Shown: positions 1 to 15,376, counted from the stretch's first letter. The stretch is DNA of 64,000 nt from Candidatus Aminicenantales bacterium (GCA_050015275.1 JBEKBS010000013.1:4589-68588); one strand, 5' to 3'. Numbers and translations are program-made. The notes: generated by a model not told the origin, from the letters alone.

Positions 1-1026
1 CTGGCCGCCTCCTCGGACGAGGACTTCCGCCTGGACAGGTATTACCTCGACGAATCGAAATGGATGGACGTCATCGACACCGCCCGGACCGTGCCCTTCC
101 TCTTCCATGCCTGGCGGGTCCTCGTCGTCTCGATCCCTGAGCGGCGTCCGGGCTCCGACAGGGGCGGCGGTCAGCGCGGGGAGGCGGGCGGCGACGAGAT
201 GAAAGGGGCGAAGTTCCTGAGCGAGGCTGACCAGAAGATCATCCGCGCCTACTTCGCCGAACCGGCGGCCCGGACCACCCTCGTCGTCATCATGCCCGGG
301 AAGGTCAGGAAGAACGACTCCATTGTCCGGTTCTTTTCGTCCCTGCCGAAGTCTTCCGTCCTGGTCAAGGAGGTTAAGCGTCTCTATGCGCAGGGCGTCA
401 AGAACTGGGCCGACCGGAAGGCCCAGACGCTCGGAAAGTCGCTCACCGAAGGAGCGAAGGCCCGCCTGTACGAGATCGTCGGCTCCGACCTCAGGCTGCT
501 TTCGAACGAGCTCGAAAAGCTGGCGACCTTCGTCGGCGACAAGCGGGGGATCAGCGAGGAGGACGTCAACCAGGCTACGGCCTGGCTCAGGAGCTACGAG
601 TCCTACGAGATCGACGATGTTCTGACGAACGCGGACTTCGAACAGGGGGTCACGATCCTCGGCCACCTCTTCTCGGAGGGCGAAAAGCCGGAGCTCATCG
701 TCGGGCGGCTGACGACTTTCTTCAGGAACGTCCTCGCGGCCCAGACCTGGCTCCGCGAAAGGAGCAAGACGAGGGAGGAGATTTTCCAAGAGTTCTTTCC
801 CTATATCCAGAAGGCCCATTCCGGCCTCTACGAAAGGAAATATGAGGGGTTCTTCTCGGCCGTCGAGGGGCTGTCACGGACAGAGCTCGCCTCCGTCCTG
901 AGGAAACTCCAGAAGGTGGACATCAGGATCAAGACGACCGAGACCGATGCGAAGACGGCCCTCGAGGTCTTCCTGAAGGAGTATTGTCTGCTGCGGGGCC
1001 GGAGGAAGGCTATTTCGCGGGGCTGA
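1..1026 (+). CDS. holA: DNA polymerase III delta subunit (5'-truncated by window edge)
   Basis: Frame open from base 1; motifs 'ARTVPFL', 'VGSDLRLLSNELEKLATF', 'ISEEDV', 'LQKVDIRIKT'; adjacent to rpsT, a common synteny. Confidence 0.85.
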   Translation: MAASSDEDFRLDRYYLDESKWMDVIDTARTVPFLFHAWRVLVVSIPERRPGSDRGGGQRGEAGGDEMKGAKFLSEADQKIIRAYFAEPAARTTLVVIMPGKVRKNDSIVRFFSSLPKSSVLVKEVKRLYAQGVKNWADRKAQTLGKSLTEGAKARLYEIVGSDLRLLSNELEKLATFVGDKRGISEEDVNQATAWLRSYESYEIDDVLTNADFEQGVTILGHLFSEGEKPELIVGRLTTFFRNVLAAQTWLRERSKTREEIFQEFFPYIQKAHSGLYERKYEGFFSAVEGLSRTELASVLRKLQKVDIRIKTTETDAKTALEVFLKEYCLLRGRRKAISRG

Positions 1027-1288
1027 CGCCCAGCCCGACGACCTGACGGCTGAGGCGGGATTTGTAACGGCTCCCCGTGTTCTTGTGGATCGTGCCTTTC
1101 TTGACGGCCTGGTCGATCGTCGAAATGACGCCGGGGAGGAGCTTCCGGGCCGTTTCCTGGTCTTTATTCTCGGTCGCTTCGCGGACTTTCTTGATGCCGG
1201 TGCGGAGCGCGGACGTGTTCCGGGCGTTGACCGCCTTCCTGCGGATGCTGCGCCGCTCTTGCCGGATGGCGGATTTGTGATGGGCCAT
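1010..1288 (-). CDS. rpsT: 30S ribosomal protein S20
   Basis: MAHHKSAIRQERRSIRR...IDQAVKKGTIHKNTGSRYKSRL; start reassigned to ATG 1288 after an AGGAG RBS. 3' end overlaps holA convergently by 17 nt. Confidence 0.95.
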   Translation of the reverse strand: MAHHKSAIRQERRSIRRKAVNARNTSALRTGIKKVREATENKDQETARKLLPGVISTIDQAVKKGTIHKNTGSRYKSRLSRQVVGLGVSPAK

Positions 1289-1312
1289 GGTTTGACTCCT
1301 TGAAAGGCGTCT

Positions 1313-1341
1313 ATGATAGAATATCCTGGTTTCAAAGTCAA
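1313..1341 (-). promoter_or_regulatory. sigma-70-type promoter for rpsT
   Basis: Minus strand TTGACT (1336-1341)-N17-TATCAT (1313-1318). Confidence 0.6.
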
Positions 1342-1376
1342 ACAGCCTCCCCACTGGAGCGAGGCGGCCCTGCCTG

Positions 1377-2969
1377 ATGGAACGCGACGACCAGAGAAGC
1401 CGGCTCCTGCGGTCCACGGCCTCCGTGGCCCTGCCGACGCTCGTCAGCAGGCTGCTGGGCTACGTCCGGGACCTCCTCCAGGCCTATTTCCTGGGCACGG
1501 GCCACAGCGCCGACGCCTTCACCATCGCCTTTACCATCCCTAATCTCTTCCGCCGCCTGACGGGCGAAGGGGCCATGACGGCGGCGTTCGTTCCGACCTT
1601 CACGGAGATCAAGGGAAAGGGCGACCGGAAGGAGCTTTGGAAGTTCGGCAACGTCTTTTTCTATGATCTCGCCCTGGTCATGGGTCTCGCGACCATCCTG
1701 GGCATCGTCTTCGCGCCGGGCCTCGTCAAGGTCATCGCCTACGGGTTCAAGGCGACCGAAGGCAAGTGGGCCCAGACGATCGCCATGACCCGGATCATGT
1801 TCCCGTACCTCTTTTTCATCAGCCTGGCGGCCCTGGCCTCGGCCATCCTCAATTCCTTCCGCCGGTTCTTCATCCCGGCCTCGACGCCGATCCTGTTCAA
1901 TTTGGCCGTCATCGCCGCCGCGGCCTGCCTGGCCCGCGGATCGAGAGCGCCGGCCCGCGTCTTTTGCCTCGGCGTTCTGGCCGGAGGCGTCCTGCAGCTC
2001 CTCGTCCAGGTCCCCTTCCTCCGGAAGGAGGGGATGCGCTTCACCTTCGGCCTGTCCTTCAGGCATCCGGCGGTCCGCCGCGTCGCGGCCCTCATGGTGC
2101 CGGGGGTCCTCGGGGCGGGCGTCTACCAGGTCAACTTCGCCCTGAGCCGGATGATCGCGTCCGGTTTGGGGCGGGGAAGCACGGCCGCGCTTTACTACTC
2201 GTCGAGGATCGAGGAGCTGACCATGGGGCTTTTCTCGATCGCCCTCGCCGCCGCCCTCCTGCCGGTCTTTTCAGAACACGCCGCGGCCCTGGACATGCCG
2301 GAGATGAAGCGGACGCTGGGTTTTTCCCTCAGACTGACCTCGTTCGTGACGCTTCCTGCCGCGGCCGGGCTCGTCGTCCTCAGCCGGCCGATCATCAGGG
2401 TCCTCTTCGAGCGGGGGAAGTTCGACAGCGAATCGACCTCCCTGAGCGCGGCCTGCCTCCTGTTCTTCGCCTTGGGCCTGCCCTTCGTTTCCGGGGTGAA
2501 AATGCTCGCCCCGGCCTTCTTCTCGCTCAAGGACATGAGGTCTCCCGTCATCGTGGGAGTTGCCGTCATGGCCGTCAACGTCGGCTTGTCGTTCGCCCTG
2601 ATGGGCCGCCTGCGTGTCGGCGGCCTGGCCCTTGCCCTGTCGTTGTCGCAGGTGGTCAACTTCGGCGCCCTCTTCGCTTGGCTCGAGAAAAAGATCGGGC
2701 CCATGGACAGGCGGGCCGTCGCCGCCACGGCCGGCAAGGCCTTGGCCGCCTCAGCCCTGATGGCCGCGGCCCTCCTGTTCTTCCGGCCCGTTATCGACGT
2801 CGCGACAGCGCCCTTCGCCCGTCAGGCGGCGGGATTGGCCGCGGCCATCGCCCTGGGCATCGGCCTCTATATCCTGTCCCTCTGGCTCATCAGCCCGAAG
2901 GAGGCGAAAAGTCTCGTCGGGACTGTTCTCCACGCCGCGCGGCCCCGTGCCCGAAAGGAGGCCGGATGA
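1377..2969 (+). CDS. murJ: Lipid II flippase MurJ (MviN)
   Basis: [39 protein letters not shown] motifs; many TM helices; 530 aa. Confidence 0.95.
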
Positions 2970-3433
2970 AAATCGTGCTGCAGAGGGTCAAGGAAGCCCG
3001 GGTCGAGGTCGAGGGGAATACGGTCGGCCGCATCGGGAAGGGGATCTGCCTCCTCCTGGGAGTCGAAAAGGGCGACACGGAGGACGAGGCCTGCCTCTTG
3101 GCCAGGAAAGCGGTCGAACTTCGCATCTTCCCGGACGCCGATGGAAAGATGAACCTGTCGCTGGCCGACCTCGGCGGCGAGGTCCTGGCCGTCTCCCAGT
3201 TCACGCTGGCCGGGTCGGTCCGCAAGGGCAGGCGGCCGAGCTTCGACGGCGCCGAGGAGCCCCGCCGGGCTGCGGAGATATTCGACCACTTCGTGGGCGC
3301 CGTCGAGGCCATGGGGGTCACGGTCGAGACCGGCGTTTTCCAGGCCGTCATGGATGTCCACATCGTGAACGACGGCCCGGTGACTTTCGTTCTCGATTCC
3401 CGGAAAGGCCCTGGCGGCGGCGAAGAGGGATGA
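2966..3433 (+). CDS. dtd: D-aminoacyl-tRNA deacylase
   Basis: [30 protein letters not shown] motifs; true start ATG 2966 (ATGA overlap with murJ stop), within the 555-aa track ORF. Confidence 0.95.
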
Positions 3434-3511
3434 GAAAGCCGGCCCCGACCTCACCCCTCTGGGGGATGGCCGCCCAGCCAAAATCACCTGCGGAATCCCC
3501 GGCTCTGACCA

Positions 3512-3540
3512 TAGACCGGTCCGGCCGTTCCGCCCATAAT
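3512..3540 (+). promoter_or_regulatory. candidate sigma-70 promoter of the radical SAM operon
   Basis: TAGACC (3512-3517)-N17-CATAAT (3535-3540), about 85 nt upstream of ATG 3625. Confidence 0.4.
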
Positions 3541-3624
3541 GCCCAGAGGACGGAGACTGTTCCGGAGACCGTAGGGTTCTGCGCCGCAAATGAGGTCTCC
3601 TGAGATGGACAAAAGCGCATTGCC

Positions 3625-5574
3625 ATGAGCCGATTCGTGAGCCGGGAGCCGAGGCCGCGCCTGCCCCGCCTTCCTCTGAGCGGCGCCATCGACCTGACCT
3701 ACAGGTGCGGCAACGACTGCCGTCACTGTTGGCTCAGGCTTGCCCCAGGCTCGCCGGAGGGGAAGCGCGAGCTCACGTTCGAGGAGATCCGGACGATCGT
3801 CGATGCGGCCCGGCGGATGGGCTGCCGGGGCTGGTCCCTTTCCGGCGGCGAGCCCATGCTCCGCCCGGATTTCGCCGAGATCTTCGACTACATCACCACG
3901 CATTCAGCCACATACACCCTGAACACGAACGGGGCCCTGATCACGCCGGCGATCGCCCGCTTAATGAAGAAGCAGGGCACGAAGCTTATCGCCCTCTATG
4001 GCGCCACGTCCGAGGTCCACGACCGGGTCACCCGGAATCCCGGTTCCTTCGAGGCCCTGAAAAGGGGCATCGACCTTCTCCGCGAGGCGAACGCCCGGTT
4101 CACCGTCCAGATCGTCCCGATGAAAAGCAACCTCGACGAGTACGAAGCCATGGCCCGGCTGGCCGGATCCTGGAGCCCGTCCTGGCGGGTCGGGGCGGGC
4201 TGGCTCTGTCTCGCGGCCGACGGCGACTCCGGCAAGAACAGAGGGATCCGGGAAGAGCGGCTGGCCCCCGCCGATGTCCTCAGGATCGACCGGCCGGAGG
4301 GCCCGTCGGGCGGCCTCGACGAAGAGCGTTCGTCGTGCCCGTCCGCCTCGGGCGGCGGGCTCTACGCGGAGTGCCTTGCCGGCCGCCGGGAATTCCATAT
4401 TGACCCCTACGGCGGGATGAGCTTCTGCGGCTTCGCCAAGGACCCGGCCCTGCGCCTCGACCTCCGCCGGATGAGCTTCCGAGAGGCCTGGGACGACCGC
4501 CTCCCCGGGCTGGCCGACAGGATCAAGCCGGGGAAAAAATATTTCGAAAATTGCGGGGCCTGCGACCTCCGGGATGATTGCCGGTGGTGTCCCGTCTACG
4601 CTTACCTCGAGCACCGCGACCACTCGGCCAGGATCGATTATCTTTGCGCGATCGCCCGGGAGGAGAGGGCCTTCAGGAATGAATGGGAGAGGACGCATTG
4701 CCGCTCCTACGGGATCGCCGGCCTGAGGATCCGGGTCGAGGCGGACTTGCCGATCACGGACTCGACCTTCCAACCGAAGCTCGAGCGCTTCAGAACTTCG
4801 GGCCCGGGCGAGAGCATCATCAGGATCCGCCACCACTTCTCGCTCCCGGACCTCGCCGGAGAGGATCTGGGACAAGAGGTCTACCGCAAGCCGCCATGGG
4901 CGATCTTCCGGAAGGGCAGCTCCTGGATCTACTTGGGCATTTACCCCGACCCGGCTGACAAGAGGATCCACAGGGTCATCGTTTTCAACGACGACCATAC
5001 CCGGGCCGGGATCTTCAGCCCTTCGGCCGAGCTGTTCCGCGGCGGCGGCCTCGATTCCTTGACGATCCTCGCCTCCGACCAGATCCTGCTGGCCCGGGTC
5101 CTGCCGTTCGTCGGCGGCGCGTTCGTCCACGCGGCGGGTGTCAGCCTGAACGGCAGCGGCCTTCTCTTCGCCGGACCTTCGGAGGCCGGGAAATCGACCA
5201 TCGTCAAAATGCTCAAGGGAAGGGCCGAGATCCTCTGCGATGACCGGATGATCGTCAGGAGAAACGCCGGAGGGTTCCGCATCCACGGGACCTGGAGCCA
5301 CGGCGAAGTCCCCGATGTCTCCCCGGGTTCGGCCCCCTTCCGGGCCCTCCTTTTCCTCCGGCAGGCCAGGGAGAACCGCATCGAGCGGGTCGAAGACCCG
5401 AAGGCCGTTCTCAAAAGCCTCCTGCCGCGGTTCGTCAGGCCCCTCGTGACGGCGGACTGGTGGAACCGGGTCCTCACCCTGGCCGGGGAGATCGCGGCCG
5501 GGATCCCTTGTTACGATATGCATTTTGACAAGAGCGGCACGGTCGTCGACGCCCTCGAGGAGATGTTTAAATGA
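3625..5574 (+). CDS. Radical SAM/SPASM peptide maturase fused to a C-terminal HprK/PEPCK-fold P-loop kinase-like domain
   Basis: CGNDCRHC (3706-3729), SGGEPM, NTNG; SPASM C-x17-C...CGAC-x5-C-x2-CP...C. C-terminal ~290 aa has HAAGV...GLLFAGPSEAGKST...LCDD, typical of HPr-kinase-related proteins. Confidence 0.85.
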   Translation: MSRFVSREPRPRLPRLPLSGAIDLTYRCGNDCRHCWLRLAPGSPEGKRELTFEEIRTIVDAARRMGCRGWSLSGGEPMLRPDFAEIFDYITTHSATYTLNTNGALITPAIARLMKKQGTKLIALYGATSEVHDRVTRNPGSFEALKRGIDLLREANARFTVQIVPMKSNLDEYEAMARLAGSWSPSWRVGAGWLCLAADGDSGKNRGIREERLAPADVLRIDRPEGPSGGLDEERSSCPSASGGGLYAECLAGRREFHIDPYGGMSFCGFAKDPALRLDLRRMSFREAWDDRLPGLADRIKPGKKYFENCGACDLRDDCRWCPVYAYLEHRDHSARIDYLCAIAREERAFRNEWERTHCRSYGIAGLRIRVEADLPITDSTFQPKLERFRTSGPGESIIRIRHHFSLPDLAGEDLGQEVYRKPPWAIFRKGSSWIYLGIYPDPADKRIHRVIVFNDDHTRAGIFSPSAELFRGGGLDSLTILASDQILLARVLPFVGGAFVHAAGVSLNGSGLLFAGPSEAGKSTIVKMLKGRAEILCDDRMIVRRNAGGFRIHGTWSHGEVPDVSPGSAPFRALLFLRQARENRIERVEDPKAVLKSLLPRFVRPLVTADWWNRVLTLAGEIAAGIPCYDMHFDKSGTVVDALEEMFK

Positions 5575-6794
5575 GCCCGGCGGCAAAGGCCTTCACGAGA
5601 AAGGTTGAGTCCGGCCGGGCGGACTTCTGGAAGGCCGGGCGCCCGCGTCTCGCCAGGCTCGACATCGAGCTCACCGAGCGGTGCAACAACGACTGCGTCC
5701 ACTGTTCGATCAACCTGCCGGACGGGGACGACGAGGCCAAGCGCCGGGAATCGACCACGGCAGAGATCAAGAATATCCTCGCCGAGGCGGCTTCTCTCGG
5801 CTGCCTGAGCGTCAGGTTCACGGGCGGGGAGCCCCTCCTCCGGGAGGATTTCGAGGAGACCTACATGGCCGCCCGGAAGCTGGGCCTCCGGGTCAGGATC
5901 TTCACCAACGCCACTCTCGTCACGCCGCGGCTCGCCGCGGTCCTCAAGAAGGTCCCGCCGCTCGAAAAAATGGAAGTCTCCGTCTACGGAATGACAAGCG
6001 AGACCTCGGAAAAAGTGACCGGGAACCCTGGCGCGTACGAGGCGTCCCGGCGGGGCATCGGCCTTCTCTCCGGTCACGGCATCCCGTTCGTGCTCAAAGG
6101 CGTTGTCGTGCCGGACACGAAGGGCGAGATGGACCGCTTCGAGGCCTGGGCCCGTGAGATCTCCGGCGCGGCCGGACGTCCTGCCTACGCCGTGCTTTTT
6201 GACCTGAGATCGCGCCGCGACAATGAAGCTAAAAACGACCGGATCCGGGAGCTCAGGATGGGACCGCGGGAATACGTCGAGCTGGAATCCCGCCTACGAA
6301 AAAGCCATGCGGGCGAACTCAGGGGATTCGTCGCCCGTTTCGCCGGGACAAGCGGCGACCGCCTCTTCGCCTGCCTCGCCGACACGGGCAGCGTCGATGC
6401 CTACGGCCGCTTCCAGGTTTGTCTCCTCCTGCGGCACCCCGAGACCGTCTTCGACCTGAAAAAAAGTTCTTTGCGAAGCGCCGTCGAGGAGTTCCTGCCG
6501 AAGGTCCGGGAGATGCGGGCGTCAGATCCGGCCTATCTCGAGCGCTGCGGCCGTTGCTTTCTTAAGGCCTTGTGCCTGCTGTGCCCGGCGAGGTCATGGA
6601 CGGAGCATGGCACTCTCGACACCCCGGTCGAGTATCTTTGCGGGATCACCCATGCCCAGGCGGTCTCGATCGGGGTCATCAGAGAAGGGGAGAAGTCCTG
6701 GGCCGTGGCGGACTGGCGGGCCCGGGTCGAACGGCTGACAGCTTCGCCGAAGGATCGGGAAACGGCGCGGATCGAAGGCCGCGAGGAATGCTGA
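5571..6794 (+). CDS. Radical SAM/SPASM peptide maturase (paralogue 2)
   Basis: CNNDCVHC, TGGEPLLREDF, FTNATL; SPASM CLAD...FQVC...CGRCFLKALCLLCP...YLC; ATGA overlap with upstream gene. Confidence 0.9.
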   Translation: MSPAAKAFTRKVESGRADFWKAGRPRLARLDIELTERCNNDCVHCSINLPDGDDEAKRRESTTAEIKNILAEAASLGCLSVRFTGGEPLLREDFEETYMAARKLGLRVRIFTNATLVTPRLAAVLKKVPPLEKMEVSVYGMTSETSEKVTGNPGAYEASRRGIGLLSGHGIPFVLKGVVVPDTKGEMDRFEAWAREISGAAGRPAYAVLFDLRSRRDNEAKNDRIRELRMGPREYVELESRLRKSHAGELRGFVARFAGTSGDRLFACLADTGSVDAYGRFQVCLLLRHPETVFDLKKSSLRSAVEEFLPKVREMRASDPAYLERCGRCFLKALCLLCPARSWTEHGTLDTPVEYLCGITHAQAVSIGVIREGEKSWAVADWRARVERLTASPKDRETARIEGREEC

Positions 6795-6805
6795 GGAGAA
6801 GAATC

Positions 6806-7111
6806 ATGGAAAGTCCGATCAGCCTGGATTCGGCCTATGGGCCGTCGGAAGACGTCGTCGTCAGAGAGATCGAGGGGGAGCTCATCATCGTCCCGCTCGT
6901 CTCCGGCATCGGGGACCTCGAGGACGAGCTCTTCACCCTGAATGAGACCGGCCGGGCCATCTGGCAGAGGCTCGACGGCCTGAGGCCATTACGAGCCGTC
7001 GTGAACGAGCTCGCCGCCGAGTTCGACGCGCCGGCCGGACGCATCGAGGAGGACGTCGTCGGGCTCCTCGAGGAGCTCGCCCGGCGGAAGATGATCGTCC
7101 GGAAAGGATGA
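6806..7111 (+). CDS. Stand-alone PqqD-family RiPP recognition element (RRE)
   Basis: DVVVREIEGELIIVP...LFTLNETGRAIWQRLDG...LAAEFD...EDVVGLLEEL is the PqqD pattern; GAGGAG RBS at 6793-6798, ATG 6806, 101 aa. Confidence 0.9.
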   Translation: MESPISLDSAYGPSEDVVVREIEGELIIVPLVSGIGDLEDELFTLNETGRAIWQRLDGLRPLRAVVNELAAEFDAPAGRIEEDVVGLLEELARRKMIVRKG

Positions 7112-7620
7112 GCGCTCGAGACATGAAACCCGCCCGGCTCATCAGGAAAGATAGAGAGCTCGCGCTCTCGGGCAAAGCCCTGACCGGGCTCATGCGGGCG
7201 GTCCTCGCGAAAGGAAAGCCCCTGCGGTTCCGGGCCAGAGGGCTCAGCATGTCGCCCTTCATCAAGGACGGTGACGTGGTAACTGTGCGGCCGCTCGCGG
7301 GAGCGCGCCCGAGGGCGGGAGACATCGTGGCGTTCCTCCATCCCGCGACCGGCAAGGCGGCTGTCCACAGGGTCGTCGGAGAATGGTCGGGCCTTTTCTC
7401 GCTGAAGGGAGATAACACTCCTGGGGCCGACGGTGTGCTATCGCTCGAACAAATCCTGGGGACCGTCTGCCGTATCGAAAGGTCGGGCAAAAGCGTCCTT
7501 TTAGGACGGCGCCCGGGCCGGGCCGTGATCGCCTCGCTCTCGCGGTCCGGGTTGCTGACGAAAGCCCTGGGAGCCGCCCGCCGGGCGTCCGGCCGGAAAC
7601 CCGGGAGGAGCCGGTCATGA
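7108..7620 (+). CDS. Soluble S24/S26-family (signal-peptidase-like) Ser-His peptidase, candidate leader peptidase
   Basis: GLSMSPFIKDGD (catalytic Ser), GDIVAF, VHRV (His), KGDN boxes; no N-terminal TM anchor; ATGA-coupled on both sides. Confidence 0.8.
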   Translation: MSARDMKPARLIRKDRELALSGKALTGLMRAVLAKGKPLRFRARGLSMSPFIKDGDVVTVRPLAGARPRAGDIVAFLHPATGKAAVHRVVGEWSGLFSLKGDNTPGADGVLSLEQILGTVCRIERSGKSVLLGRRPGRAVIASLSRSGLLTKALGAARRASGRKPGRSRS

Positions 7621-8732
7621 CCCGGCGCTTCGTTTCCCGCAAGGAGCTGCCCGCCCTTCCGCTCTGGGAGAAGATGGGGAAGAGAAGGGCCGCACTCAGC
7701 TTCGATCTCGAAGTGACCGACCGCTGCAACCTCAACTGCCGCCATTGCTATATCAACGTCCCGGCCGGAGACAGGGCCGCGAAAAGGCGGGAGGTCGATG
7801 CGGCCGAGGTCGGCCGGATCGGAGCCGAAGCCGCCTCCCTCGGCGTCCTCTGGTGCCTGATCACGGGCGGGGAGCCCCTCCTCCGGAAGGATTTTTTCGA
7901 GGTTTACCTGGCCTTGAGGCGGCTGGGATTTCTGATATCGGTTTACACGAACGCGACGCTCATCGGCTCGGAGCACATCCGGTTTTTCAAAAAATATCCG
8001 CCCCGGGACATCGAAGTGACGGTCTACGGCGTGACAGAAGAGACCTACGAGCGGGTGACCCGGGTGCCCGGCTCGTTCGCGGCTTTCCGACAAGGGCTCG
8101 GTCTTCTCCTCGAGAGCGGCGTCAAGGTCCGGCTCAAGGCCATGGCTATGCGCTCCAATTATCACGAACTCCCGGCGATCGCCGAGTTCTGCCGGGCGAG
8201 GACCAAGGATTATTTCCGCTTCGACCCGTTCCTCCATTACCGTTTCGACCGGGATCCCGGACGCAATAAGGAGATCGAGGCCGAGCGGCTGAAGCCGGCC
8301 GAGGTGGTCGGGATCGAACAGGCTGACAGCGAGCGTTTCCGGGCGCTGGAGACAAGCTGCGACCGGCTCATCGTCCCCGAATTCTCAAAGTCCGACTGCC
8401 GACACCTCTTTCGTTGCGACGCAGGGCAGAGGAATTTCGTCGTCGGGTCCGACGGCCGTTTCCGGCTCTGCGCCTCGCTCTATCATCCCGATCTCTTCTT
8501 CGACCTGAAAAAGGGGAGCCTAGCCGAGGCCTGGACGAGCTTCGTGCCGGCGGTCCTGGCCAGGAAAACGGACCGGAAGGACTATCTGGAAAGGTGCGCC
8601 AGGTGTCCGATCATCAACCTTTGTCTCTGGTGCCCGGCCCACGCGTATCTGGAGACCGGCGAGCTGGATGCGCCCGTTGACAATTTTTGTAAGCTCGCGC
8701 ATTCGCGTGAGAAAGCCCTTAATAAATGTTGA
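7617..8732 (+). CDS. Radical SAM/SPASM peptide maturase (paralogue 3)
   Basis: CNLNCRHC, TGGEPLLRKDF, YTNATL; SPASM CDAG...FRLC...CARCPIINLCLWCP...NFC. Confidence 0.9.
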   Translation: MTRRFVSRKELPALPLWEKMGKRRAALSFDLEVTDRCNLNCRHCYINVPAGDRAAKRREVDAAEVGRIGAEAASLGVLWCLITGGEPLLRKDFFEVYLALRRLGFLISVYTNATLIGSEHIRFFKKYPPRDIEVTVYGVTEETYERVTRVPGSFAAFRQGLGLLLESGVKVRLKAMAMRSNYHELPAIAEFCRARTKDYFRFDPFLHYRFDRDPGRNKEIEAERLKPAEVVGIEQADSERFRALETSCDRLIVPEFSKSDCRHLFRCDAGQRNFVVGSDGRFRLCASLYHPDLFFDLKKGSLAEAWTSFVPAVLARKTDRKDYLERCARCPIINLCLWCPAHAYLETGELDAPVDNFCKLAHSREKALNKC

Positions 8733-8757
8733 CAAAAGGCCCTAAAAGCTTTATTAT
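8729..8757 (+). promoter_or_regulatory. Strong internal sigma-70 promoter for the precursor peptide gene
   Basis: TTGACA (8729-8734, overlapping the rSAM3 TGA stop)-N17-TATTAT (8752-8757); 11/12 consensus matches with ideal spacing in a GC-rich background. Confidence 0.75.
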
Positions 8758-8785
8758 CAACGACGAAAAGGGAGCGAGGAAGCGG

Positions 8786-8983
8786 ATGAGAAGAACTTCG
8801 ATGAAAAAACCCTGGCAGACCCCTGAGCTAGTGATCCTTTTTCGAGGCAGGCCCGAAGAGGCCGTCCTGTGCAACTGCAAGCACGCCAACATGGCCGCCG
8901 TTTCCCCCCATACTTTCAATAACAGCTGCAACTTGAGCGCGACCTGCTGTTCCACCTGCCAGAACACGACAGCGGCCAGCTGA
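8786..8983 (+). CDS. Putative RiPP precursor peptide (WxxPxL leader; six-Cys Ser/Thr/Asn-rich core)
   Basis: MRRTSMKKPWQTPELVILFRGRPEEAVL-CNCKHANMAAVSPHTFNNSCNLSATCCSTCQNTTAAS; GAGGA RBS at 8776-8780; alternative start ATG 8801 (60 aa); directly downstream of the rSAM/PqqD/peptidase genes. Confidence 0.8.
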   Translation: MRRTSMKKPWQTPELVILFRGRPEEAVLCNCKHANMAAVSPHTFNNSCNLSATCCSTCQNTTAAS

Positions 8984-8985
8984 AC

Positions 8986-9017
8986 GGCCGCTCCCCACAA
9001 GCGGTCAGGCTTTTTTT
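8986..9017 (+). terminator. Probable intrinsic terminator after precursor gene
   Basis: Stem GGCCGCT / AGCGGTC with a 7-nt loop, followed after 4 nt by T7 (9011-9017). Confidence 0.6.
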
Positions 9018-9127
9018 CCGCATTCCCGTTTTTCCTGTCCCCCGGTGACATCCGGACCAGATCAGGAAGGCACTTTTTGCCGAGATCGGATAGGCCTGGC
9101 TCTGCCGAGCCTTGGGCCCAACAGATG

Positions 9128-9712
9128 TCAGATGAACCGGACTTCGCTCGCCTTGCGGATGGCCTCTTCGGCGGCCTGCCTCACGTAGGGGTTCGGGTCC
9201 TTCTTCAGCCCGACCAGCAGGCCGAGCGCCTCTTCTCCGCCGATCTCTCCCAGGGCCTCTGCCGCCGACCGCCGGATGTCGGCGTTGGCCGTGCCCTCAA
9301 GGGCTTTCTCTATCTTAGGGATGGCCGCCTGGGCCCGGTGGACACCCAGGAGCTTCAGGACGGCGCTCCTGGCGTACCACGGGGGACGGCCGAGCCGGCC
9401 GAGGGCTCGGCCGAGGTCGAGCGTCCGTTTTCGGGCAAGCTCCAGGAAGACATAACCGCGGACCCCTTCGCACGGATCGCCCAGCGCTTCCCAGAAGAGC
9501 TCCTCTACCCAGGGCGCTCTGACCTTGGCGCAGGCCTTGAGGATGCCCAGCCTTTTTTTCTTGTCCGGGGTCGCGGCGAGCTTTTGAATGAACCGGCCGC
9601 AAATAGGCGAAAAGGCCGCCGCTTCAGCCGCCGCGCCCGCCGGATGACGTTCGTCCTTGCTCAAAGTCTCCAGGTCTCCTCTGCCATTCTTCCCCGCCGG
9701 AATGTCTGACAT
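9128..9712 (-). CDS. HEAT/PBS-lyase-like repeat protein
   Basis: Repeats 'ALGDPCEGVR', 'NADIRRSAAEALGEIG', 'KDPNPYVRQAAEEA'; start uncertain; co-oriented just downstream of ribBA. Confidence 0.75.
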   Translation of the reverse strand: MSDIPAGKNGRGDLETLSKDERHPAGAAAEAAAFSPICGRFIQKLAATPDKKKRLGILKACAKVRAPWVEELFWEALGDPCEGVRGYVFLELARKRTLDLGRALGRLGRPPWYARSAVLKLLGVHRAQAAIPKIEKALEGTANADIRRSAAEALGEIGGEEALGLLVGLKKDPNPYVRQAAEEAIRKASEVRFI

Positions 9713-9734
9713 CGGTCCAGGTCCGGGCCGGGCC

Positions 9735-10952
9735 TCAGACCCGGTCCAGGATATGGCCCATTTTCTCTTTTTTTGTTTTCAGGTACCTGAGGTTGCTGGC
9801 GTTGGGCTCGACCTCGAGCGGAACGCGCTCGACGATCTCCAGCCCGTAGCCGGCCAGGCCGATGTATTTCCGGGGATTGTTGGTGATGAGGCGGATCTTG
9901 CGGACGCCCAGGGCCGCGAGGACCTGGGCGCCGATGCCGTAGTCGCGCTGGTCGGTCTTGAATCCCAGCCGGTGGTTGGCCTCGACCGTGTCCGCGCCCT
10001 GGTCCTGGAGGGCGTAAGCCCGGACCTTGTTCGGCAGCCCGATCCCGCGGCCTTCCTGGTTCAGGATATAGAGAACGATCCCCTTGCCCTCTTTTTCGAT
10101 CATCTCCATGGACCGCCGGAGCTGCTCTCCGCAGTCGCAACGGAGTGAGCTGAAGGTGTCGCCAGTCAGGCACTGGGAATGGGTCCGGACGAGCGTGGGC
10201 TCGTCTCCCCGGATCTCGCCCTTGACCAGGGCGGCGTGGTGTTCCTTGCTGATGACGTCCTCGAAGAGGAAGAGCCGGAAATGGCCGTGGCGCGTGGGCA
10301 TGTCGGCCTCTTCGAGCTTCCGGACCAGGGTTTCGTGGTTCATCCGGTAGCGGATGAGGTCGGCGATGGTCAGGACCGGGATGCCGTGCTCCCGGCTGAA
10401 GCGGTCGAGCTGGGGCCTGCGGGCCATGGACCCGTCCTCGTTCATGATCTCGCAGATGACGCCGGCCGGAGCGAGGCCCGCGAGGCGGGCCAGGTCGACG
10501 GCAGCCTCGGTCTGGCCGGCCCTGGCGAGGACGCCGCCCTCCTTGGCTTGGAGGGGAAAGACGTGGCCCGGCCGGGCCAGGTCCTCGGGCTTCGTCCGCG
10601 GGTCAAGGGCCGCCAGGATGGTTTTCGCCCGGTCGTAGGCCGAGATCCCCGTCGTAACGCCCTGCTTGGCGTCGATCGAGACCGTGAAGGCGGTCTGGTA
10701 GCGCGCCGTATTGTCGGCGACCATGAGGGGAAGATGGAGCTCTTCCAGGCGTTCCCGGGTCAGAGGCAGGCAGATGAGCCCCCGGCCGTGCTTGGTCATG
10801 AAGTTGACGATTTCCGGGGTGATCTTTTCGGCGGCGACCGTGAGGTCGCCCTCGTTCTCCCGGTCTTCGTCGTCGACGACGATGATCATCCGGCCGGCCT
10901 GGACCTCGGCCACGGCCTGCTCGACGGAAATTGTCTTGTCCTTGCCGTCCAT
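9735..10952 (-). CDS. ribBA: Bifunctional DHBP synthase / GTP cyclohydrolase II
   Basis: [41 protein letters not shown]; start moved to ATG 10952. Confidence 0.95.
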
Positions 10953-10995
10953 GGTTCTTTCGGTTGGGGATAAAAGCCCGTTCAGAGGGCCCTTG

Positions 10996-11592
10996 TCAGC
11001 CCGCTTTTTGTCCCTTGACGAGCCAATTATACACGTATTTTCCGATGATGTCACACTCGAGATTGACCGAGGCCCCGGCGCGGAGACCGCCCAGGTTTGT
11101 CCCCTCCAGGGTCAGCGGGATGAGCTCGATGTCCATGGACGACGGGCCGAGCGAGGCGATCGTCAGGCTGACGCCGTTGACCGCCACCGAGCCCTGTGGG
11201 ACAAGGAAGGGGCGGATGCGCTTGGGGAAGGATACGGTGATCCTCCGTCCAGGCCTTCTCTCCGCTGTCCGGAGGATCTTTCCGACGGCGTCGACATGGC
11301 CCGTGACCAGGTGGCCGCTGAGAGGGGACGCCAGGGTAAGCGGAAGCTCCAGGTTGACACGGTCGTGATGCTTGAGGACCCCCAGCGTCGTCCGGTCGAT
11401 GGTCTCCAGGGACAGGTTGAAGCGAAGGCTGCCCTTCTCCGCGCCGAGGAGGCTTAGGCAAACGCCGTCGACCGAGACACTGTCGCCGGGACGGAGCTTG
11501 TCCGTGAGGCCCGGCGCCTCGATGAGGAGCTTCTGACGGCCGCGGCGGTATCCGGAAAAAAGGCCCTGGTGAGTGATGATCCCCGTGAACAT
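10996..11592 (-). CDS. ribE: Riboflavin synthase (alpha chain)
   Basis: N-terminal [37 protein letters not shown]. Confidence 0.95.
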
Positions 11593-12692
11593 CAGAAATA
11601 TCCCTCCAGGATGATGTCGTCCCCGAGGCCGAACGGCCGGAGGCTTTTCAAGGTCAAGGCGGCCCGGACCTTCTCGACGCCCTCTCCCTCCCAAAGGCCC
11701 GGCGCGTCGCGGCCGCCGACGAGCTTGGGGGAGAGCGTGATGAAGATCTTATCGGCGAGCCTGCGCTCGATGAAGCTCGTGTGGAGCCGGCGCCCGCCCT
11801 CGACGAGGAGGCCCGCGATCTCCCTTCTGCCGAGCTCGACGAGGACGGCTTCGAGACCACCGTCCTTCAGGGACCTGCCGAGCCCGACGACCTCGACGCC
11901 TTTTTTTTTCAAGGCTTCGGCCTTCGTAGAGGGCGCCCCGCGCCCGGCGAAGACGATGATCGGACCGTGCGCGAGAGTGCCCAGGAGTCTGGCCGAGAGC
12001 GGGAACCGCAGCTCGGAATCGAGGATGACGCGGGTGAGTTTCTTTTCGCCCCAGCTCGGATGGCGGACGGTCAGGCGCGGGTCGTCGCGGAGGAGCGTGT
12101 TGACGCCGACCATCAGGGCGTCATATTCCCCCCGCAGGAGATGGACGTAATCTCTCGTCCCGGCCGCGGAGATCCAGCGGGAATCGCCGGTCCGGGACGC
12201 GGTCTTGCCGTCCAGGCTCATGGCGGCCTTGAGGGTCACGAAGGGGACCTTTCGGGTGATGTACTTGATATAGATCTCGTTCAGGCGGGCGTTCTTTTCC
12301 CGGAGGAGCCCGACGCTGACGTCGAGGCCCGCCCGCTTCAGCTTCCGGACGCCCCGCCGGTGGACGATCGGATTCGGGTCGTATTCCGAGATGACGGCCC
12401 TTTTCAATCCGGCCGCAAGGAGGGTGTCGGCGCAGGGGGGCGTCCGGCCCCAGTGGACGCACGGCTCGAGGGTGATGTAGATCGTCGCTCCCTTGGCCCG
12501 GCGCCCGGCTTGCCGGAGGGCCATGATCTCGGCATGGGGTTTGCCCGCCTCCTCGTGATAGCCGCAGCCGGCGATCTTCCCGTCGCGGACGATGACCGAG
12601 CCGACGAGAGGGTTGGGGCTCGACCGGCCCCGGGCCTTTTCGGCGAGCCCGTAGGCCATTTCCATGCAAGCAAGATCGGTGGCCTTGCTCAT
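11592..12692 (-). CDS. ribD: Bifunctional pyrimidine deaminase/reductase RibD
   Basis: PNPLVG, HAE, TLEPCVHWGRTPPC, SLDGK, LLVEGG. Confidence 0.95.
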   Translation of the reverse strand: MSKATDLACMEMAYGLAEKARGRSSPNPLVGSVIVRDGKIAGCGYHEEAGKPHAEIMALRQAGRRAKGATIYITLEPCVHWGRTPPCADTLLAAGLKRAVISEYDPNPIVHRRGVRKLKRAGLDVSVGLLREKNARLNEIYIKYITRKVPFVTLKAAMSLDGKTASRTGDSRWISAAGTRDYVHLLRGEYDALMVGVNTLLRDDPRLTVRHPSWGEKKLTRVILDSELRFPLSARLLGTLAHGPIIVFAGRGAPSTKAEALKKKGVEVVGLGRSLKDGGLEAVLVELGRREIAGLLVEGGRRLHTSFIERRLADKIFITLSPKLVGGRDAPGLWEGEGVEKVRAALTLKSLRPFGLGDDIILEGYF

Positions 12693-13579
12693 GCGAGAAG
12701 CGCCTCGACGAATTCGCGCGGCGAGAACTCGAGGAGGTCGTCCTCCGATTCGCCGACGCCGATGAAGCGGATCGGGAGGGCCAGCTCGTCGGCGATCCCG
12801 ATGACGGACCCGCCCTTGGCGGTCCCGTCGAGTTTGGTCAGGAAGATCCCGGTGAGGCCGGAGTACTTCAGGAATTCCCGGGCCTGGAGGATGGCGTTCT
12901 GGCCGACCGTCGCGTCCAGGACGAGAAGCGTCTCCTGGGGGGCCCCCTCGATCTCCCGGCCGGCCACGCGCCTGATCTTTTCGAGCTCGACCATGAGGTT
13001 CGTGTGGGTATGGATCCGTCCGGCCGTGTCGACGAGGAGGACATCGCCTTGCTGGGCCTTGAACGACCGGACGGCGTCGAAGACGACGGAGGCGGGGTCG
13101 GCGCCGTACTGGGCTTTGACGACGGGGATCCCGAGCCGCCGGCCCCAGAGGACGAGCTGTTCCTGGGCCGCAGCCCGGAACGTGTCGGCCGCGGCCATCA
13201 TCACCTTTTTGCCGGCGCGCTGATAATAGCGGGCGAGCTTGGCCGTCGAGGTCGTCTTGCCGCCGCCGTTGACGCCGACCATCAGGACGACGGCCGGGCC
13301 TTGGCCTGCGGCCGGCGGTTTCATGTGCCGGGCGAGGACGGCTTCGAGCTCCGCTTTGAGGGCTTTTTCCAGGTCCAGCCCGGAGTCCTCCTTCCGGGTT
13401 TCGGCGCGGAGGGACTCTATGATCTTTTCGGTGGTCCCGACCCCGACGTCGGCCAGGATCAGGGCCTCGGCCAGGTCGTCCAGGATCTCTTCCCTCTGTT
13501 TCCCGCTCCGGAAGAGCTGCCCGATCTTCTGGAACGCCCGGCGGGTCCGGAACAATTTCTCGCGGAGGTTGGCGAACAC
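12689..13579 (-). CDS. ftsY: SRP receptor FtsY (NG domain only)
   Basis: GVNGGGKTTS, DTFRAAA, DTAGR, TKLDGTAKGG, GVGE; GTG start. Confidence 0.95.
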   Translation of the reverse strand: MFANLREKLFRTRRAFQKIGQLFRSGKQREEILDDLAEALILADVGVGTTEKIIESLRAETRKEDSGLDLEKALKAELEAVLARHMKPPAAGQGPAVVLMVGVNGGGKTTSTAKLARYYQRAGKKVMMAAADTFRAAAQEQLVLWGRRLGIPVVKAQYGADPASVVFDAVRSFKAQQGDVLLVDTAGRIHTHTNLMVELEKIRRVAGREIEGAPQETLLVLDATVGQNAILQAREFLKYSGLTGIFLTKLDGTAKGGSVIGIADELALPIRFIGVGESEDDLLEFSPREFVEALLA

Positions 13580-13588
13580 GGTTTAACT

Positions 13589-13617
13589 ATTTTATTTTTC
13601 AATCGTTTGAATGTCAA
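13589..13617 (-). promoter_or_regulatory. sigma-70 promoter of the ftsY-rib operon
   Basis: Minus strand TTGACA (13612-13617)-N17-TAAAAT (13589-13594), 9 nt from the ftsY GTG. Confidence 0.7.
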
Positions 13618-13684
13618 CTTTCACTCCGGACGTCCCCTGCGGCAAATTGTGGAATGCGGATGAATGTGCTACAGTGACAATCAG

Positions 13685-15376
13685 ATGAATTCCTCAGTCT
13701 GGATCATGACCCCGGCCAGATCCGAAGCCGAGGCCCTGGCCGCGGAGCTGGGCCTCTCCCCGGCCATCGCCCAGGTCCTCGTCAACCGCAAGATCGCGAC
13801 ACCCGGCGAGGCCAGGTCCTTCCTCTTCGGAACGCTCGATGGGCTCCACGACCCGTACCTGATGAAGGGGATGGCCCAGGCCGTGGAAAGGATCCAGAAG
13901 GCGATCGCCGACGGCGAGAAGATCCTGATCTTCGGCGATTATGACGTCGACGGCGTCCTCTCGGTCGTCATGCTCTTCAAGGCCCTGGCCTCGCTCGGGG
14001 CCAAGGTCGAGTATTTCATTCCCGAGCGGCTCAAAGACGGCTACGGCATCAAGGAACACCACGTGGAGATCCCCGTCGAGCGCGGCACGGGCCTCGTCAT
14101 CAGCGTCGACTGCGGGATCAAGGCGGTCGAGTTCACGGCCCAGGCCAAGGCGAAGGGCGTGGACGTCATTATCACCGACCACCACCGGCCCGGCGAGACG
14201 CTCCCGGCCGCCGTGGCCATCCTCGACCCGGTCCTGGAGGACTCGGGTTATCCCGACCGCGACCTCGCCGGCGTCGGCGTCGCGTTCAAGCTCATCCAGG
14301 CCCTCCTCGAGAAGTCGGGGAAGGCGGCGGGCCTGCCCCATTACATGAAGCTTGTCTGCATCGGGACTGTGGCCGACGTGGCCGGCCTCAAGGGCGAGAA
14401 CCGGCTGTTCGTGAAATACGGCTTGAAAGGGCTGGGGAGCGTCGCCAACACGGGGCTCAAAAGCCTGATCGAAGCCTGCGGCCTCGGCAACCGGAAGATC
14501 TCCGAGGGCGACCTCGGCTTCCGCATCGGCCCCCGGATCAACGCCGCCGGCCGGATGGGAATGACGGACCTGGCCGTCCGGCTGTTTTTCTGCGACACCA
14601 TCGAAGAGTCGCTGTCCCTTGTCCAACAGCTCGAGGAGCTGAATTCCAAGCGGCAGAGGACCGAGGAGAAGATCTTCGAGGCGGCCAAGGGCCTGATCGA
14701 GGAGAAGTCCCTGGCCCGGAAATACAAGTGCCTCGTCCTCGGGAGCGAGACCTGGCACCGCGGCGTCATCGGCATCGTGGCCTCGAAGCTCAAGGACTAT
14801 TTCCACCGGCCGGTCGTCCTTTTCGCCTACGAAGACGGCAAGGCCTGCGGCTCCGGACGGAGCATCTCGGACGTCCCGCTCATCGACCTCCTGGACGAGT
14901 GCAAGCACCTGTTCCTGAGTTACGGCGGGCACCGCCTGGCCGTCGGCTGCACGCTGCCTTTGGACCGGATGGACGCCTTCAAGGAGACCCTCAACGCCCT
15001 GGCGGACGCGAGGATCAGCGAGGAGGACCTGAAGAGGAAGATCCGGATCGACGCCCCGCTCGCGTTTTCCGCCGTCGACGGCCGCTTTCTCGAGCAGTTC
15101 TCCCTGCTCTTCCCGTTCGGCGTCGGCAATCCCAAGCCCCTTTTCCTGACCGAGAACGTGGAGATCCTGAGCGACCCGCAGATCCTCCAGCGGAAGCACC
15201 TGAAGTTCCTGGCCCGGCAGAACGGCCGGGTCTTCGAGGCCGTGGGCTGGGACAAGGCGGACTGGTCGCATGTCCTCCGCCGGGGCGGCCGGGTCGACCT
15301 GGCCTACTCGTTGCTGATGTCAGAGTATATGGGCGAACAGAGAATTAGTCTGTCCATCGAAGACCTGAGAGTCTGA
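13685..15376 (+). CDS. recJ: ssDNA-specific exonuclease RecJ
   Basis: GDYDVDG, SVDCGI, TDHH, GTVADV, PRINAAGR, GSGRS, YGGH, PFGVGNP; start 13664 or 13685. Confidence 0.95.
   Translation: MNSSVWIMTPARSEAEALAAELGLSPAIAQVLVNRKIATPGEARSFLFGTLDGLHDPYLMKGMAQAVERIQKAIADGEKILIFGDYDVDGVLSVVMLFKALASLGAKVEYFIPERLKDGYGIKEHHVEIPVERGTGLVISVDCGIKAVEFTAQAKAKGVDVIITDHHRPGETLPAAVAILDPVLEDSGYPDRDLAGVGVAFKLIQALLEKSGKAAGLPHYMKLVCIGTVADVAGLKGENRLFVKYGLKGLGSVANTGLKSLIEACGLGNRKISEGDLGFRIGPRINAAGRMGMTDLAVRLFFCDTIEESLSLVQQLEELNSKRQRTEEKIFEAAKGLIEEKSLARKYKCLVLGSETWHRGVIGIVASKLKDYFHRPVVLFAYEDGKACGSGRSISDVPLIDLLDECKHLFLSYGGHRLAVGCTLPLDRMDAFKETLNALADARISEEDLKRKIRIDAPLAFSAVDGRFLEQFSLLFPFGVGNPKPLFLTENVEILSDPQILQRKHLKFLARQNGRVFEAVGWDKADWSHVLRRGGRVDLAYSLLMSEYMGEQRISLSIEDLRV

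Follow-up and report, generated by a model that had tools for sequence, protein, structure and literature searches.

What does a bacterium make with three radical S-adenosylmethionine (SAM) enzymes, a kinase, a peptidase and a recognition protein encoded beside one small cysteine-rich peptide? The question is raised by a six-gene cassette in a 64,000-nucleotide stretch of DNA from a Candidatus Aminicenantales bacterium (GCA_050015275.1, JBEKBS010000013.1:4589-68588), the whole of which is called the window below. An original prediction, made from the nucleotide sequence of the window, had described the cassette as a candidate system for a peptide made on ribosomes and then modified post-translationally (RiPP). 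The analysis reported here leads us to conclude that it is in all likelihood a peptide-maturation system acting on the small peptide, with the enzyme roles set out below. The cassette is a derived branch of a five-gene family that is widespread; in this branch the radical SAM gene is triplicated, and the kinase is fused to one of the copies.

A six-gene cassette around a conserved precursor peptide

The six genes, named A to F here, are all co-oriented on the plus strand between dtd and rib genes. The listing of open reading frames (ORFs) of the window and the Pfam matches bear out the order originally given: a radical SAM/SPASM enzyme fused to a P-loop kinase (A), a radical SAM/SPASM enzyme (B), a PqqD protein (C), a serine-histidine peptidase (D), a third radical SAM/SPASM enzyme (E) and the small peptide (F). 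In Pfam, A, B and E match Radical_SAM, and E alone of these exceeds the SPASM cutoff; C matches PqqD, and D matches Peptidase_S24. The three ATGA stop/start overlaps claimed earlier are present at the A/B, C/D and D/E junctions. The B/C junction is a 7-nt overlap if C begins at ATG 6788; the other possible start, ATG 6806, is preceded by a GAGGAG ribosome-binding site.

The set recurs as a unit. A full-length radical SAM-kinase fusion occurs in five of the 201 sampled genomes of the phylum (G000, G167, G187, G058 and G097), and all four of the other fusion-bearing genomes in this sample hold the six genes together. The full set is also found in genome G287, which brings the count to five further genomes, all of the same class. 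Gene order, murJ and dtd included, is the same in G167 and rearranged in G187, G058, G097 and G287, while in G398 the precursor is present on a contig too short for the cassette to be judged. The small peptide taken for a precursor in the original prediction accompanies the radical SAM triplet in six of the six genomes where the whole cassette is readable. Twenty sequencing runs with matching DNA are listed, from peat and wetland metagenomes; none is RNA, so they are uninformative on expression.

Genome G187 shows some additional features. A second, divergent set, comprising a kinase-like gene, two radical SAM genes and a PqqD gene, lies some 3 kb away from the main one (L033 14253-17894), a second precursor-like match stands elsewhere on the contig (G187:C17:47590-47754), and a SAM-dependent methyltransferase gene is inserted between the precursor and A (L033 11531-12310, minus strand).

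The likeliest starts of gene F are ATG 8786 and ATG 8801. Read from ATG 8801, it encodes a WxxPxL leader, an EEAVLxxCK junction, a cysteine-rich core that is also rich in serine and threonine, a terminal serine and six cysteines (positions 24, 26, 43, 49, 50 and 53). A word-indexed search returned 20 relatives which, with four genome-derived copies, gave a 23-row alignment. W5, P8, L10, E20, L23, K27 and C43 are invariant in it, and C26, P36, C50 and C53 are kept in at least 90% of the sequences; C24 and C49 are variable, so that the six cysteines first noticed are indeed there and only four of them are conserved. The C-terminal serine is kept in 22 of the 23 rows. In the window's own genome the precursor search matched only F.

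The exception to the terminal serine is P0132, a metagenome protein with 79% identity over the leader and early core, followed by a divergent, cysteine-free tail that ends in alanine; judged from this pattern, it looks like a frameshifted copy of F.

All three radical SAM proteins contain the CX3CX2C motif and a seven-cysteine SPASM pattern that includes CX2CX5CX2C. The radical SAM cysteines are C28/32/35 in A and C38/42/45 in B, and the SPASM motif spans residues 310-322 and 326-338, respectively. The solved structures nearest to them include SkfB, the streptide enzyme and PqqE, the last of which is the best match of E (E-value 6e-11, profile search). In a tree built from 22 radical SAM domains by a quick search with no bootstrap, A, B and E fall into separate five-member clades with Shimodaira-Hasegawa-like approximate likelihood ratio (SH-aLRT) supports of 98, 100 and 95. 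The single radical SAM enzymes of the simpler loci described below form a fourth clade, to which E has the shortest path. Because the three clades are separate, the triplication is older than these lineages, with no copy lost since; on this tree A, B and E are ancient paralogues, each retained.

The C-terminal domain of A is a predicted kinase. The AlphaFold2 model of the last 299 residues has a predicted local distance difference test (pLDDT) score of 91.2, and its comparison with VIA-align places PEPCK at Z 14.1, the next unrelated match being at Z 4.4; four HprK/P structures superpose with Z 10.5-11.0 and a root-mean-square deviation of 2.7-3.2 over 117-121 residues. Ten fused and unfused kinase relatives all share residues H152, G167, S169, G172, K173, T175 and D189, the last being part of the DD motif; its second residue, D190, and R191 occur in 90% or more of them. 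The modelled domain thus has the HprK/PEPCK fold, with a Walker A motif GxSxxGK(S/T) and the DD motif. In the precomputed Pfam assignments, each of the 120 homologues listed for A (641-684 aa) has both PF04055 and PF27840; PF27840 is the family ScmC according to the Atlas output, and was assigned to A through these homologues. Those that are named belong to Aminicenantes or Aminicenantales, apart from one from Terriglobales. A search of solved structures by sequence returned nothing usable for the kinase domain or for peptidase D.

Protein C is well above the Pfam PqqD cutoff (60.6 bits against 23.4), and a profile search identified the lasso peptide recognition protein TbiB1 as its closest solved relative (E-value 8e-8). 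Peptidase D matches Peptidase_S24 (28.3 against 23.3), and its best NCBIfam match is sigpep_I_arch, TIGR02228. Its GxSMxP and VHR boxes are invariant in eight of eight sequences, it has no hydrophobic N-terminus, and its predicted model resembles LexA, SipA, SpsB and SEC11 in fold comparison.

The coordinates of the genes, of selected parts and of the candidate control signals are collected in Table 1. Of the signals, the original prediction had reported a promoter candidate at the front of the cassette and a terminator at its end. The terminator was found, at 8986-9006 with a T-run, and the front promoter is present, although weak (9/12). What had been missed is a stronger, 11/12 site directly before F. 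Two promoter-like sites were observed in a sigma-70 scan of the region, while shuffled sequences lead one to expect 0.6. In G167, a TTGACA-17-TAGAAT site (11/12) lies at the same place before the precursor gene and is the sole hit across the 6.1 kb scanned. F would then be transcribed from its own strong candidate promoter, conserved in two genomes, and presumably in excess over the enzymes.

Table 1. Features of the cassette, in window coordinates.
Feature	Position	Strand	Details
Candidate promoter ahead of A, weak, sigma-70-like	3512-3540	+	TAGACC-17-CATAAT, 9/12, consensus match only
Gene A, radical SAM/SPASM (about aa 1-350) and ScmC/HprK-like P-loop kinase (about aa 351-649)	3625-5574	+	649 aa
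Kinase domain of A	4675-5571	+	Walker A GPSEAGKST at about 5173-5199, then DDR motif
Gene B, radical SAM/SPASM paralogue	5571-6794	+	407 aa
Gene C, PqqD-family RiPP recognition element	6806-7111	+	alternative start ATG 6788; open frame 6572-7111
Gene D, soluble signal-peptidase-like (clan SF) Ser/His peptidase	7108-7620	+	170 aa
Predicted catalytic-box residues of D	Ser47 7246-7248; His87 7366-7368	+	
Gene E, radical SAM/SPASM paralogue	7617-8732	+	371 aa
Candidate promoter before F, strong, sigma-70-like	8729-8757	+	TTGACA-17-TATTAT, 11/12; -35 box overlaps E stop codon
Gene F, precursor peptide	8801-8983	+	60 aa; 65 aa from ATG 8786; open frame 8726-8983
Intrinsic-terminator-like hairpin and T-run after F	8986-9017	+	7-pair stem, 5 G-C pairs, tail AGGCTTTTTT

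Upstream of the cassette, MurJ (450.8 bits) and Dtd (173.6 bits) both exceed their curated cutoffs; downstream, on the opposite strand, lie a HEAT-repeat gene and ribBA, whose product also exceeds its curated cutoff. The HEAT-repeat protein (194 aa, 9128-9712, minus strand; Pfam HEAT_2) is encoded between the cassette terminator and ribBA and matched no NCBIfam family. An Rfam search at gathering thresholds over window positions 1-14000 gave no match.

A widespread family with a single radical SAM enzyme

In other genomes of the phylum, one radical SAM gene stands with a separate kinase-like gene, and small ORFs beside them encode a YxxPxL leader, the EEAVLxxCK junction, two further cysteines and a terminal serine. 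In a sample of 401 genomes and 227 genera, matches to the precursor profile, adjoining radical SAM hits, were obtained in 43 genomes and 31 genera. Over 29 such loci the CK dipeptide is present in every precursor and the terminal serine in 28. Genome G374, a genus-mate of the window's genome that is 96% complete, gave no precursor match, and the cassette is therefore not fixed within the genus.

To see the family beyond the sample, the pattern [PA][ED]EAVL[GA]xCK was scanned over one genome per species; at least 600 stretches matched, and at least 542 loci were confirmed. Enzymes and residues were counted over the best 80 of these confirmed loci, with purpose-built hidden Markov models on stop-to-stop ORFs in GC-rich DNA, several of the loci being cut by contig ends. 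All four proteins were found together in 58 loci; counted singly, a radical SAM enzyme was present in 72, the kinase in 73, PqqD in 66 and the peptidase in 63. None of the 80 has the fused radical SAM-kinase. Among the precursors of the same 80 loci, 78 end in serine and 79 have exactly three cysteines from CK onward. Most loci are from Acidobacteriota; some of the others are filed as Myxococcales, Polyangia, Nitrospirae, Entotheonella and Binatia, labels that we give as filed. The commonest order, PqqD, radical SAM, precursor, kinase and peptidase, is that of 38 of the 61 full-length loci. Besides the precursor and the four enzymes, giant ORFs are the only other genes to recur among the 61 full 10-kb loci. 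Like the window's cassette, the single-enzyme cassettes stay under the cutoffs of the NCBIfam models, with ScmC scores of 37.7 and 36.9 for unfused kinases. No description of this peptide family turned up in the open-access PMC and bioRxiv literature.

The giant ORFs are linked to the peptidase in 28 of the 50 single-enzyme loci with enough DNA, fused to it in 19, where the peptidase domain forms the N-terminus, and directly after it in 9 (for example L091, L093, L095, L097, L099, L101, L102, L104 and L106, among others, at about 5800-10170 in each locus). They are mostly longer than 1100 aa and extend past the fetched DNA. Pfam was run on six of them: five have surface-type domains (DUF11 repeats, CARDB, LTD, Laminin_G_3 or Peptidase_C25), and the sixth, in L136, has a beta-barrel porin domain. 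The window's cassette has no such giant neighbour.

Some loci depart from the common plan in other ways. A GNAT acetyltransferase gene follows the peptidase in genome G017 (L037 7916-8221, plus strand). A W-type precursor stands with only a kinase-like gene in G277 (L153 8501-9594) and with no enzyme match in G382 (L154 9616-9786), about 8 kb being covered on each side of both, and the precursor is alone in 5 of the 61 full-length loci of the species scan. Three recurrent minus-strand ORFs of the related loci matched nothing in Pfam and are treated as antisense artefacts of GC-rich DNA.

The proposed pathway and its alternatives

The recurrence of the six genes and the conserved precursor support the self-contained RiPP maturation cassette of the original prediction, while its radical, phosphorylation and cleavage steps are what we infer from the enzyme types. 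In the pathway that we propose, C would bind the WxxPxL motif of the F leader and present the peptide to its modifying enzymes. Of these, A, B and E would each perform a distinct radical modification of the cysteine-rich core. As the most economical guess, which we hold tentatively, these would be thioether cross-links from cysteine sulfur to carbon, of the sactipeptide/ranthipeptide kind, centred on Cys26-Lys27, Cys43 and Cys50-x-x-Cys53. That one radical SAM enzyme, A, carries the kinase as a fusion points to a coupling between one radical step and phosphorylation. The kinase domain would phosphorylate a serine, the likeliest being the near-invariant C-terminal one, by analogy with the HprK-like kinases of the paeninodin type; that residue is favoured because it is the sole serine conserved across the family, and we regard its choice as an even call. 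D would then cut off the leader near the EEAVLxxCK junction, the obvious candidate for a cleavage site, as LppS does in the linear polyphosphorylated peptide (LPP) system discussed below.

Several observations weigh against this pathway. The model of D is of only moderate confidence (pLDDT 69.6). No cassette component reaches a curated NCBIfam cutoff, those of the SynChlorMet models included, and the chemistry of the radical SAM proteins is thus not transferable from any characterized enzyme; indeed, their top-scoring models are those of the non-peptide enzymes AhbD and NirJ, far under the cutoffs. Three radical SAM enzymes also have no simple mapping onto four conserved cysteines. The LPP kinase LppK targets serine 3 of its core peptide rather than a C-terminal serine. 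Finally, the Pfam search of the cassette found no exporter or immunity gene, an absence that is unusual for a secreted antimicrobial.

This last point leads to a different view of the product, in which the same machinery would make something intracellular or envelope-associated, namely a redox or metal-binding cofactor-like compound in the manner of pyrroloquinoline quinone (PQQ) and mycofactocin, or a partner of large surface proteins. Besides the missing transporter, such a role would suit the giant ORFs at the peptidase of related loci and their surface-type domains, the housekeeping surroundings of the cassette (murJ-dtd and rib, colinear in G167), and the conserved CxxC and invariant CK, which could bind metal. 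It nevertheless seems unlikely to us, given the patchy distribution in the 401 genomes, the G374 genome without a precursor match, the unmet PqqE and MftC cutoffs and a window cassette that has no giant neighbour; because the distribution is patchy, an accessory trait fits better than a core cofactor. We consider it similarly doubtful that the kinase targets another serine or threonine near the leader-core junction, licensing cleavage as in LPP, or that it activates a serine that would become dehydroalanine and react with cysteine. In LPP, core Ser3 is the target and its phosphorylation promotes cleavage by LppS (PMC13381572), which makes the first variant worth weighing, but F and its relatives have no conserved serine next to EEAVLxxCK, and the only serine conserved family-wide is the C-terminal one (78 of the best 80 loci, 28/29 and 22/23). 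The second variant has its own precedent: phosphorylation followed by elimination is the established chemistry of class III and IV lanthipeptides, and the core of F is rich in serine and threonine; against it, Pfam found no lyase domain in the six genes.

Two further alternatives concern the identity of the enzymes. The cassette could be a member of the SynChlorMet (Scm) cassette defined by NCBIfam/TIGRFAMs, as PF27840 on the kinase-like domain and the presence of ScmC, ScmD, ScmE and ScmF among the sub-threshold matches might lead one to think; yet every Scm equivalog scores far under its cutoff, for the single-enzyme relatives as well, there are three radical SAM enzymes instead of two, and no Scm-named peptidase model is among the listed matches of D. 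We judge membership very improbable, and rejected it on the wide misses of the curated Scm cutoffs. More improbable still is that the radical SAM proteins are cofactor enzymes, either for heme (AhbD/NirJ-like) or MoaA-like, that happen to lie beside a small ORF. AhbD, NirJ and NirJ2 are their top NCBIfam matches, but at about 87-101 bits against cutoffs of at least 500 these are no better than the peptide maturases; moreover, PqqD and the conserved precursor are present at every complete locus, and the four enzymes at 58 of the best 80 distant loci, and PqqE, SkfB and the streptide enzyme are among the best solved relatives. The heme and cofactor enzymes AhbC/AhbD and NirJ were rejected with a best score of 100.8 bits against 500-650. 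The radical SAM proteins thus stand outside the heme and cofactor families. Neither such an assignment nor a triplet lacking a conserved small peptide, both of which the original prediction had named as outcomes that would refute it, was observed.

Returning to the proposed maturation of F by cross-linking, phosphorylation and leader removal, the window may hold the most elaborate version of a RiPP class that is widespread, with at least 542 loci, mostly from Acidobacteriota and with records also labelled Myxococcota, Nitrospirota, Entotheonella and others, and whose products bear radical-installed cross-links and a C-terminal (poly)phosphoserine; we see the arguments for and against this as evenly balanced. 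As proposed, the class would be recognized by a [Y/W]xxPxL leader, the EEAVLxxCK junction, two or three further cysteines and a C-terminal serine. The product would be made by a radical SAM/SPASM enzyme together with a recognition protein of the lasso type, an ScmC/HprK-like kinase and a leader peptidase resembling signal peptidases. The combination of radical-installed cross-links with a C-terminal (poly)phosphoserine is one that has not been reported for any RiPP, and if the proposal is true, the product of the three-enzyme branch bears three distinct radical modifications. The fusions of the peptidase with giant surface proteins in relatives hint at a role in the cell envelope rather than at an antibiotic. 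The family is large and conserved, mainly in poorly cultivated soil and peat bacteria, and the sharply defined precursor signature makes direct testing by heterologous co-expression possible. Three old paralogues, one of them tied to a kinase, also offer a natural experiment on the division of labour among radical SAM enzymes and on the order of steps. We regard the cassette as a strong lead for genome mining.

Comparison with known systems

The original prediction had likened the cassette in part to the SynChlorMet and HprK-related cassettes, which are bioinformatically defined (NCBIfam TIGR04248-04251, TIGR04352 and TIGR04355); a search of the open-access PMC and bioRxiv literature for SynChlorMet turned up no paper. 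The likeness stands at the domain level, since both combine radical SAM/SPASM enzymes, a PqqD relative and an HprK-like protein (ScmC, PF27840), and it does not extend to the curated equivalogs. ScmC (TIGR04249) scores 40.4 bits on full-length A and 42.4 on its kinase part against a cutoff of 125, and ScmD (TIGR04248) 24.7 against 100. ScmE (TIGR04250) gives 69.1, 74.4 and 84.9 on A, B and E, and ScmF (TIGR04251) 76.2, 84.6 and 76.7, all against 400. The HprK-related kinase models TIGR04355 and TIGR04352 give 31.5 and 12.4 bits against 200, the 31.5 being the score of HprK-related kinase B on the kinase part of A. The architecture differs too, as the Scm models name two radical SAM enzymes (ScmE and ScmF) and the cassette has three, one of them fused to a kinase, together with a signal-peptidase-like protease and a precursor with EEAVLxxCK and a C-terminal serine.

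With the sactipeptide and ranthipeptide systems (AlbA, SkfB, PapB), the cassette shares maturases with CX3CX2C and a SPASM domain containing two auxiliary-cluster cysteine motifs, a recognition element and a cysteine-rich core. Those systems usually have a single maturase with a fused recognition domain, and no kinase. Model scores again stay low. The highest are 49 of 850 bits for AlbA, on A and E, and 81 of 625 for StsB; PapB is absent from the matches listed for A, B and E and reaches no more than 57 of 340 with the single-enzyme relatives. The PQQ and mycofactocin models behave alike, with at most 72.1 of 381 for PqqE and 88.1 of 265 for MftC. Taken together, the AhbD, NirJ, MftC, ScmE/F and StsB models score 69-101 bits on A, B and E against cutoffs of 265-650.

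Paeninodin-type lasso peptides resemble the cassette in the phosphorylation step. The HprK-like kinases PadeK, ThcoK, SyanK and PsmK phosphorylate the conserved C-terminal serine of lasso precursors (PMC9266682). The cassette likewise pairs an HprK-like kinase with precursors that conserve a C-terminal serine, and has a WxxPxL leader and a recognition protein similar to lasso B1, TbiB1 being the best solved match of C. On the other hand, Pfam found among the six genes neither a lasso cyclase (asparagine-synthase-like) nor a B2 transglutaminase-like cysteine protease, and a lasso peptide cluster was rejected on these two absences; the cassette has radical SAM enzymes and a Ser/His peptidase instead.

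A precedent for three of the parts is LPP, a system of Bacillota (LppA/B/K/S; Popov et al., Nat Commun 2026). There, a free-standing recognition protein binds a leader with a YxxP motif. LppK, an HprK-like kinase, polyphosphorylates Ser3 of the LPP core, after which the signal-peptidase-like LppS removes the leader; LppS has poor activity on the unphosphorylated precursor. In that paper, signal-peptidase-like enzymes are described as previously undescribed in RiPP pathways and LPP as restricted to Bacillota (PMC13381572). C, the C-terminal domain of A, and D match the LPP recognition protein, HprK-like kinase and signal-peptidase-like peptidase by type. A [W/Y]xxPxL leader is common to both systems, and the best NCBIfam match of D is of the archaeal type (TIGR02228), as is the LPP peptidase; D stays under the TIGR02228 cutoff (39.2 against 51.85), but its serine and histidine boxes are invariant.

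The two systems also differ. The LPP system is without radical SAM enzymes, of which the cassette has three, and the terms 'radical SAM', 'rSAM' and 'SPASM' have no occurrence in the LPP paper (PMC13381572). The LPP leader consensus, YxxPxVLxHQxIxFETxxS, is not present in the cassette precursor, the LPP phosphosite is Ser3 of the core, and the nucleoside triphosphate (NTP) transferase and MsbA-like exporter domains of LPP are not among the six genes by Pfam. The earlier statement that the enzyme set matches no characterized class accordingly gives way for the trio of recognition protein, kinase and peptidase, which LPP now exemplifies, and holds for the rest of the set. This module was shown only in 2026 and reported to be confined to Bacillota; if our reading of the cassette is true, it joins radical SAM/SPASM cross-linking with the recognition, HprK-like kinase and signal-peptidase module, so far separate lines. 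By analogy, then, the cassette works like a hybrid, in which the maturase set of a sactipeptide or ranthipeptide is combined with the phosphorylation-and-cleavage module of LPP and paeninodin.

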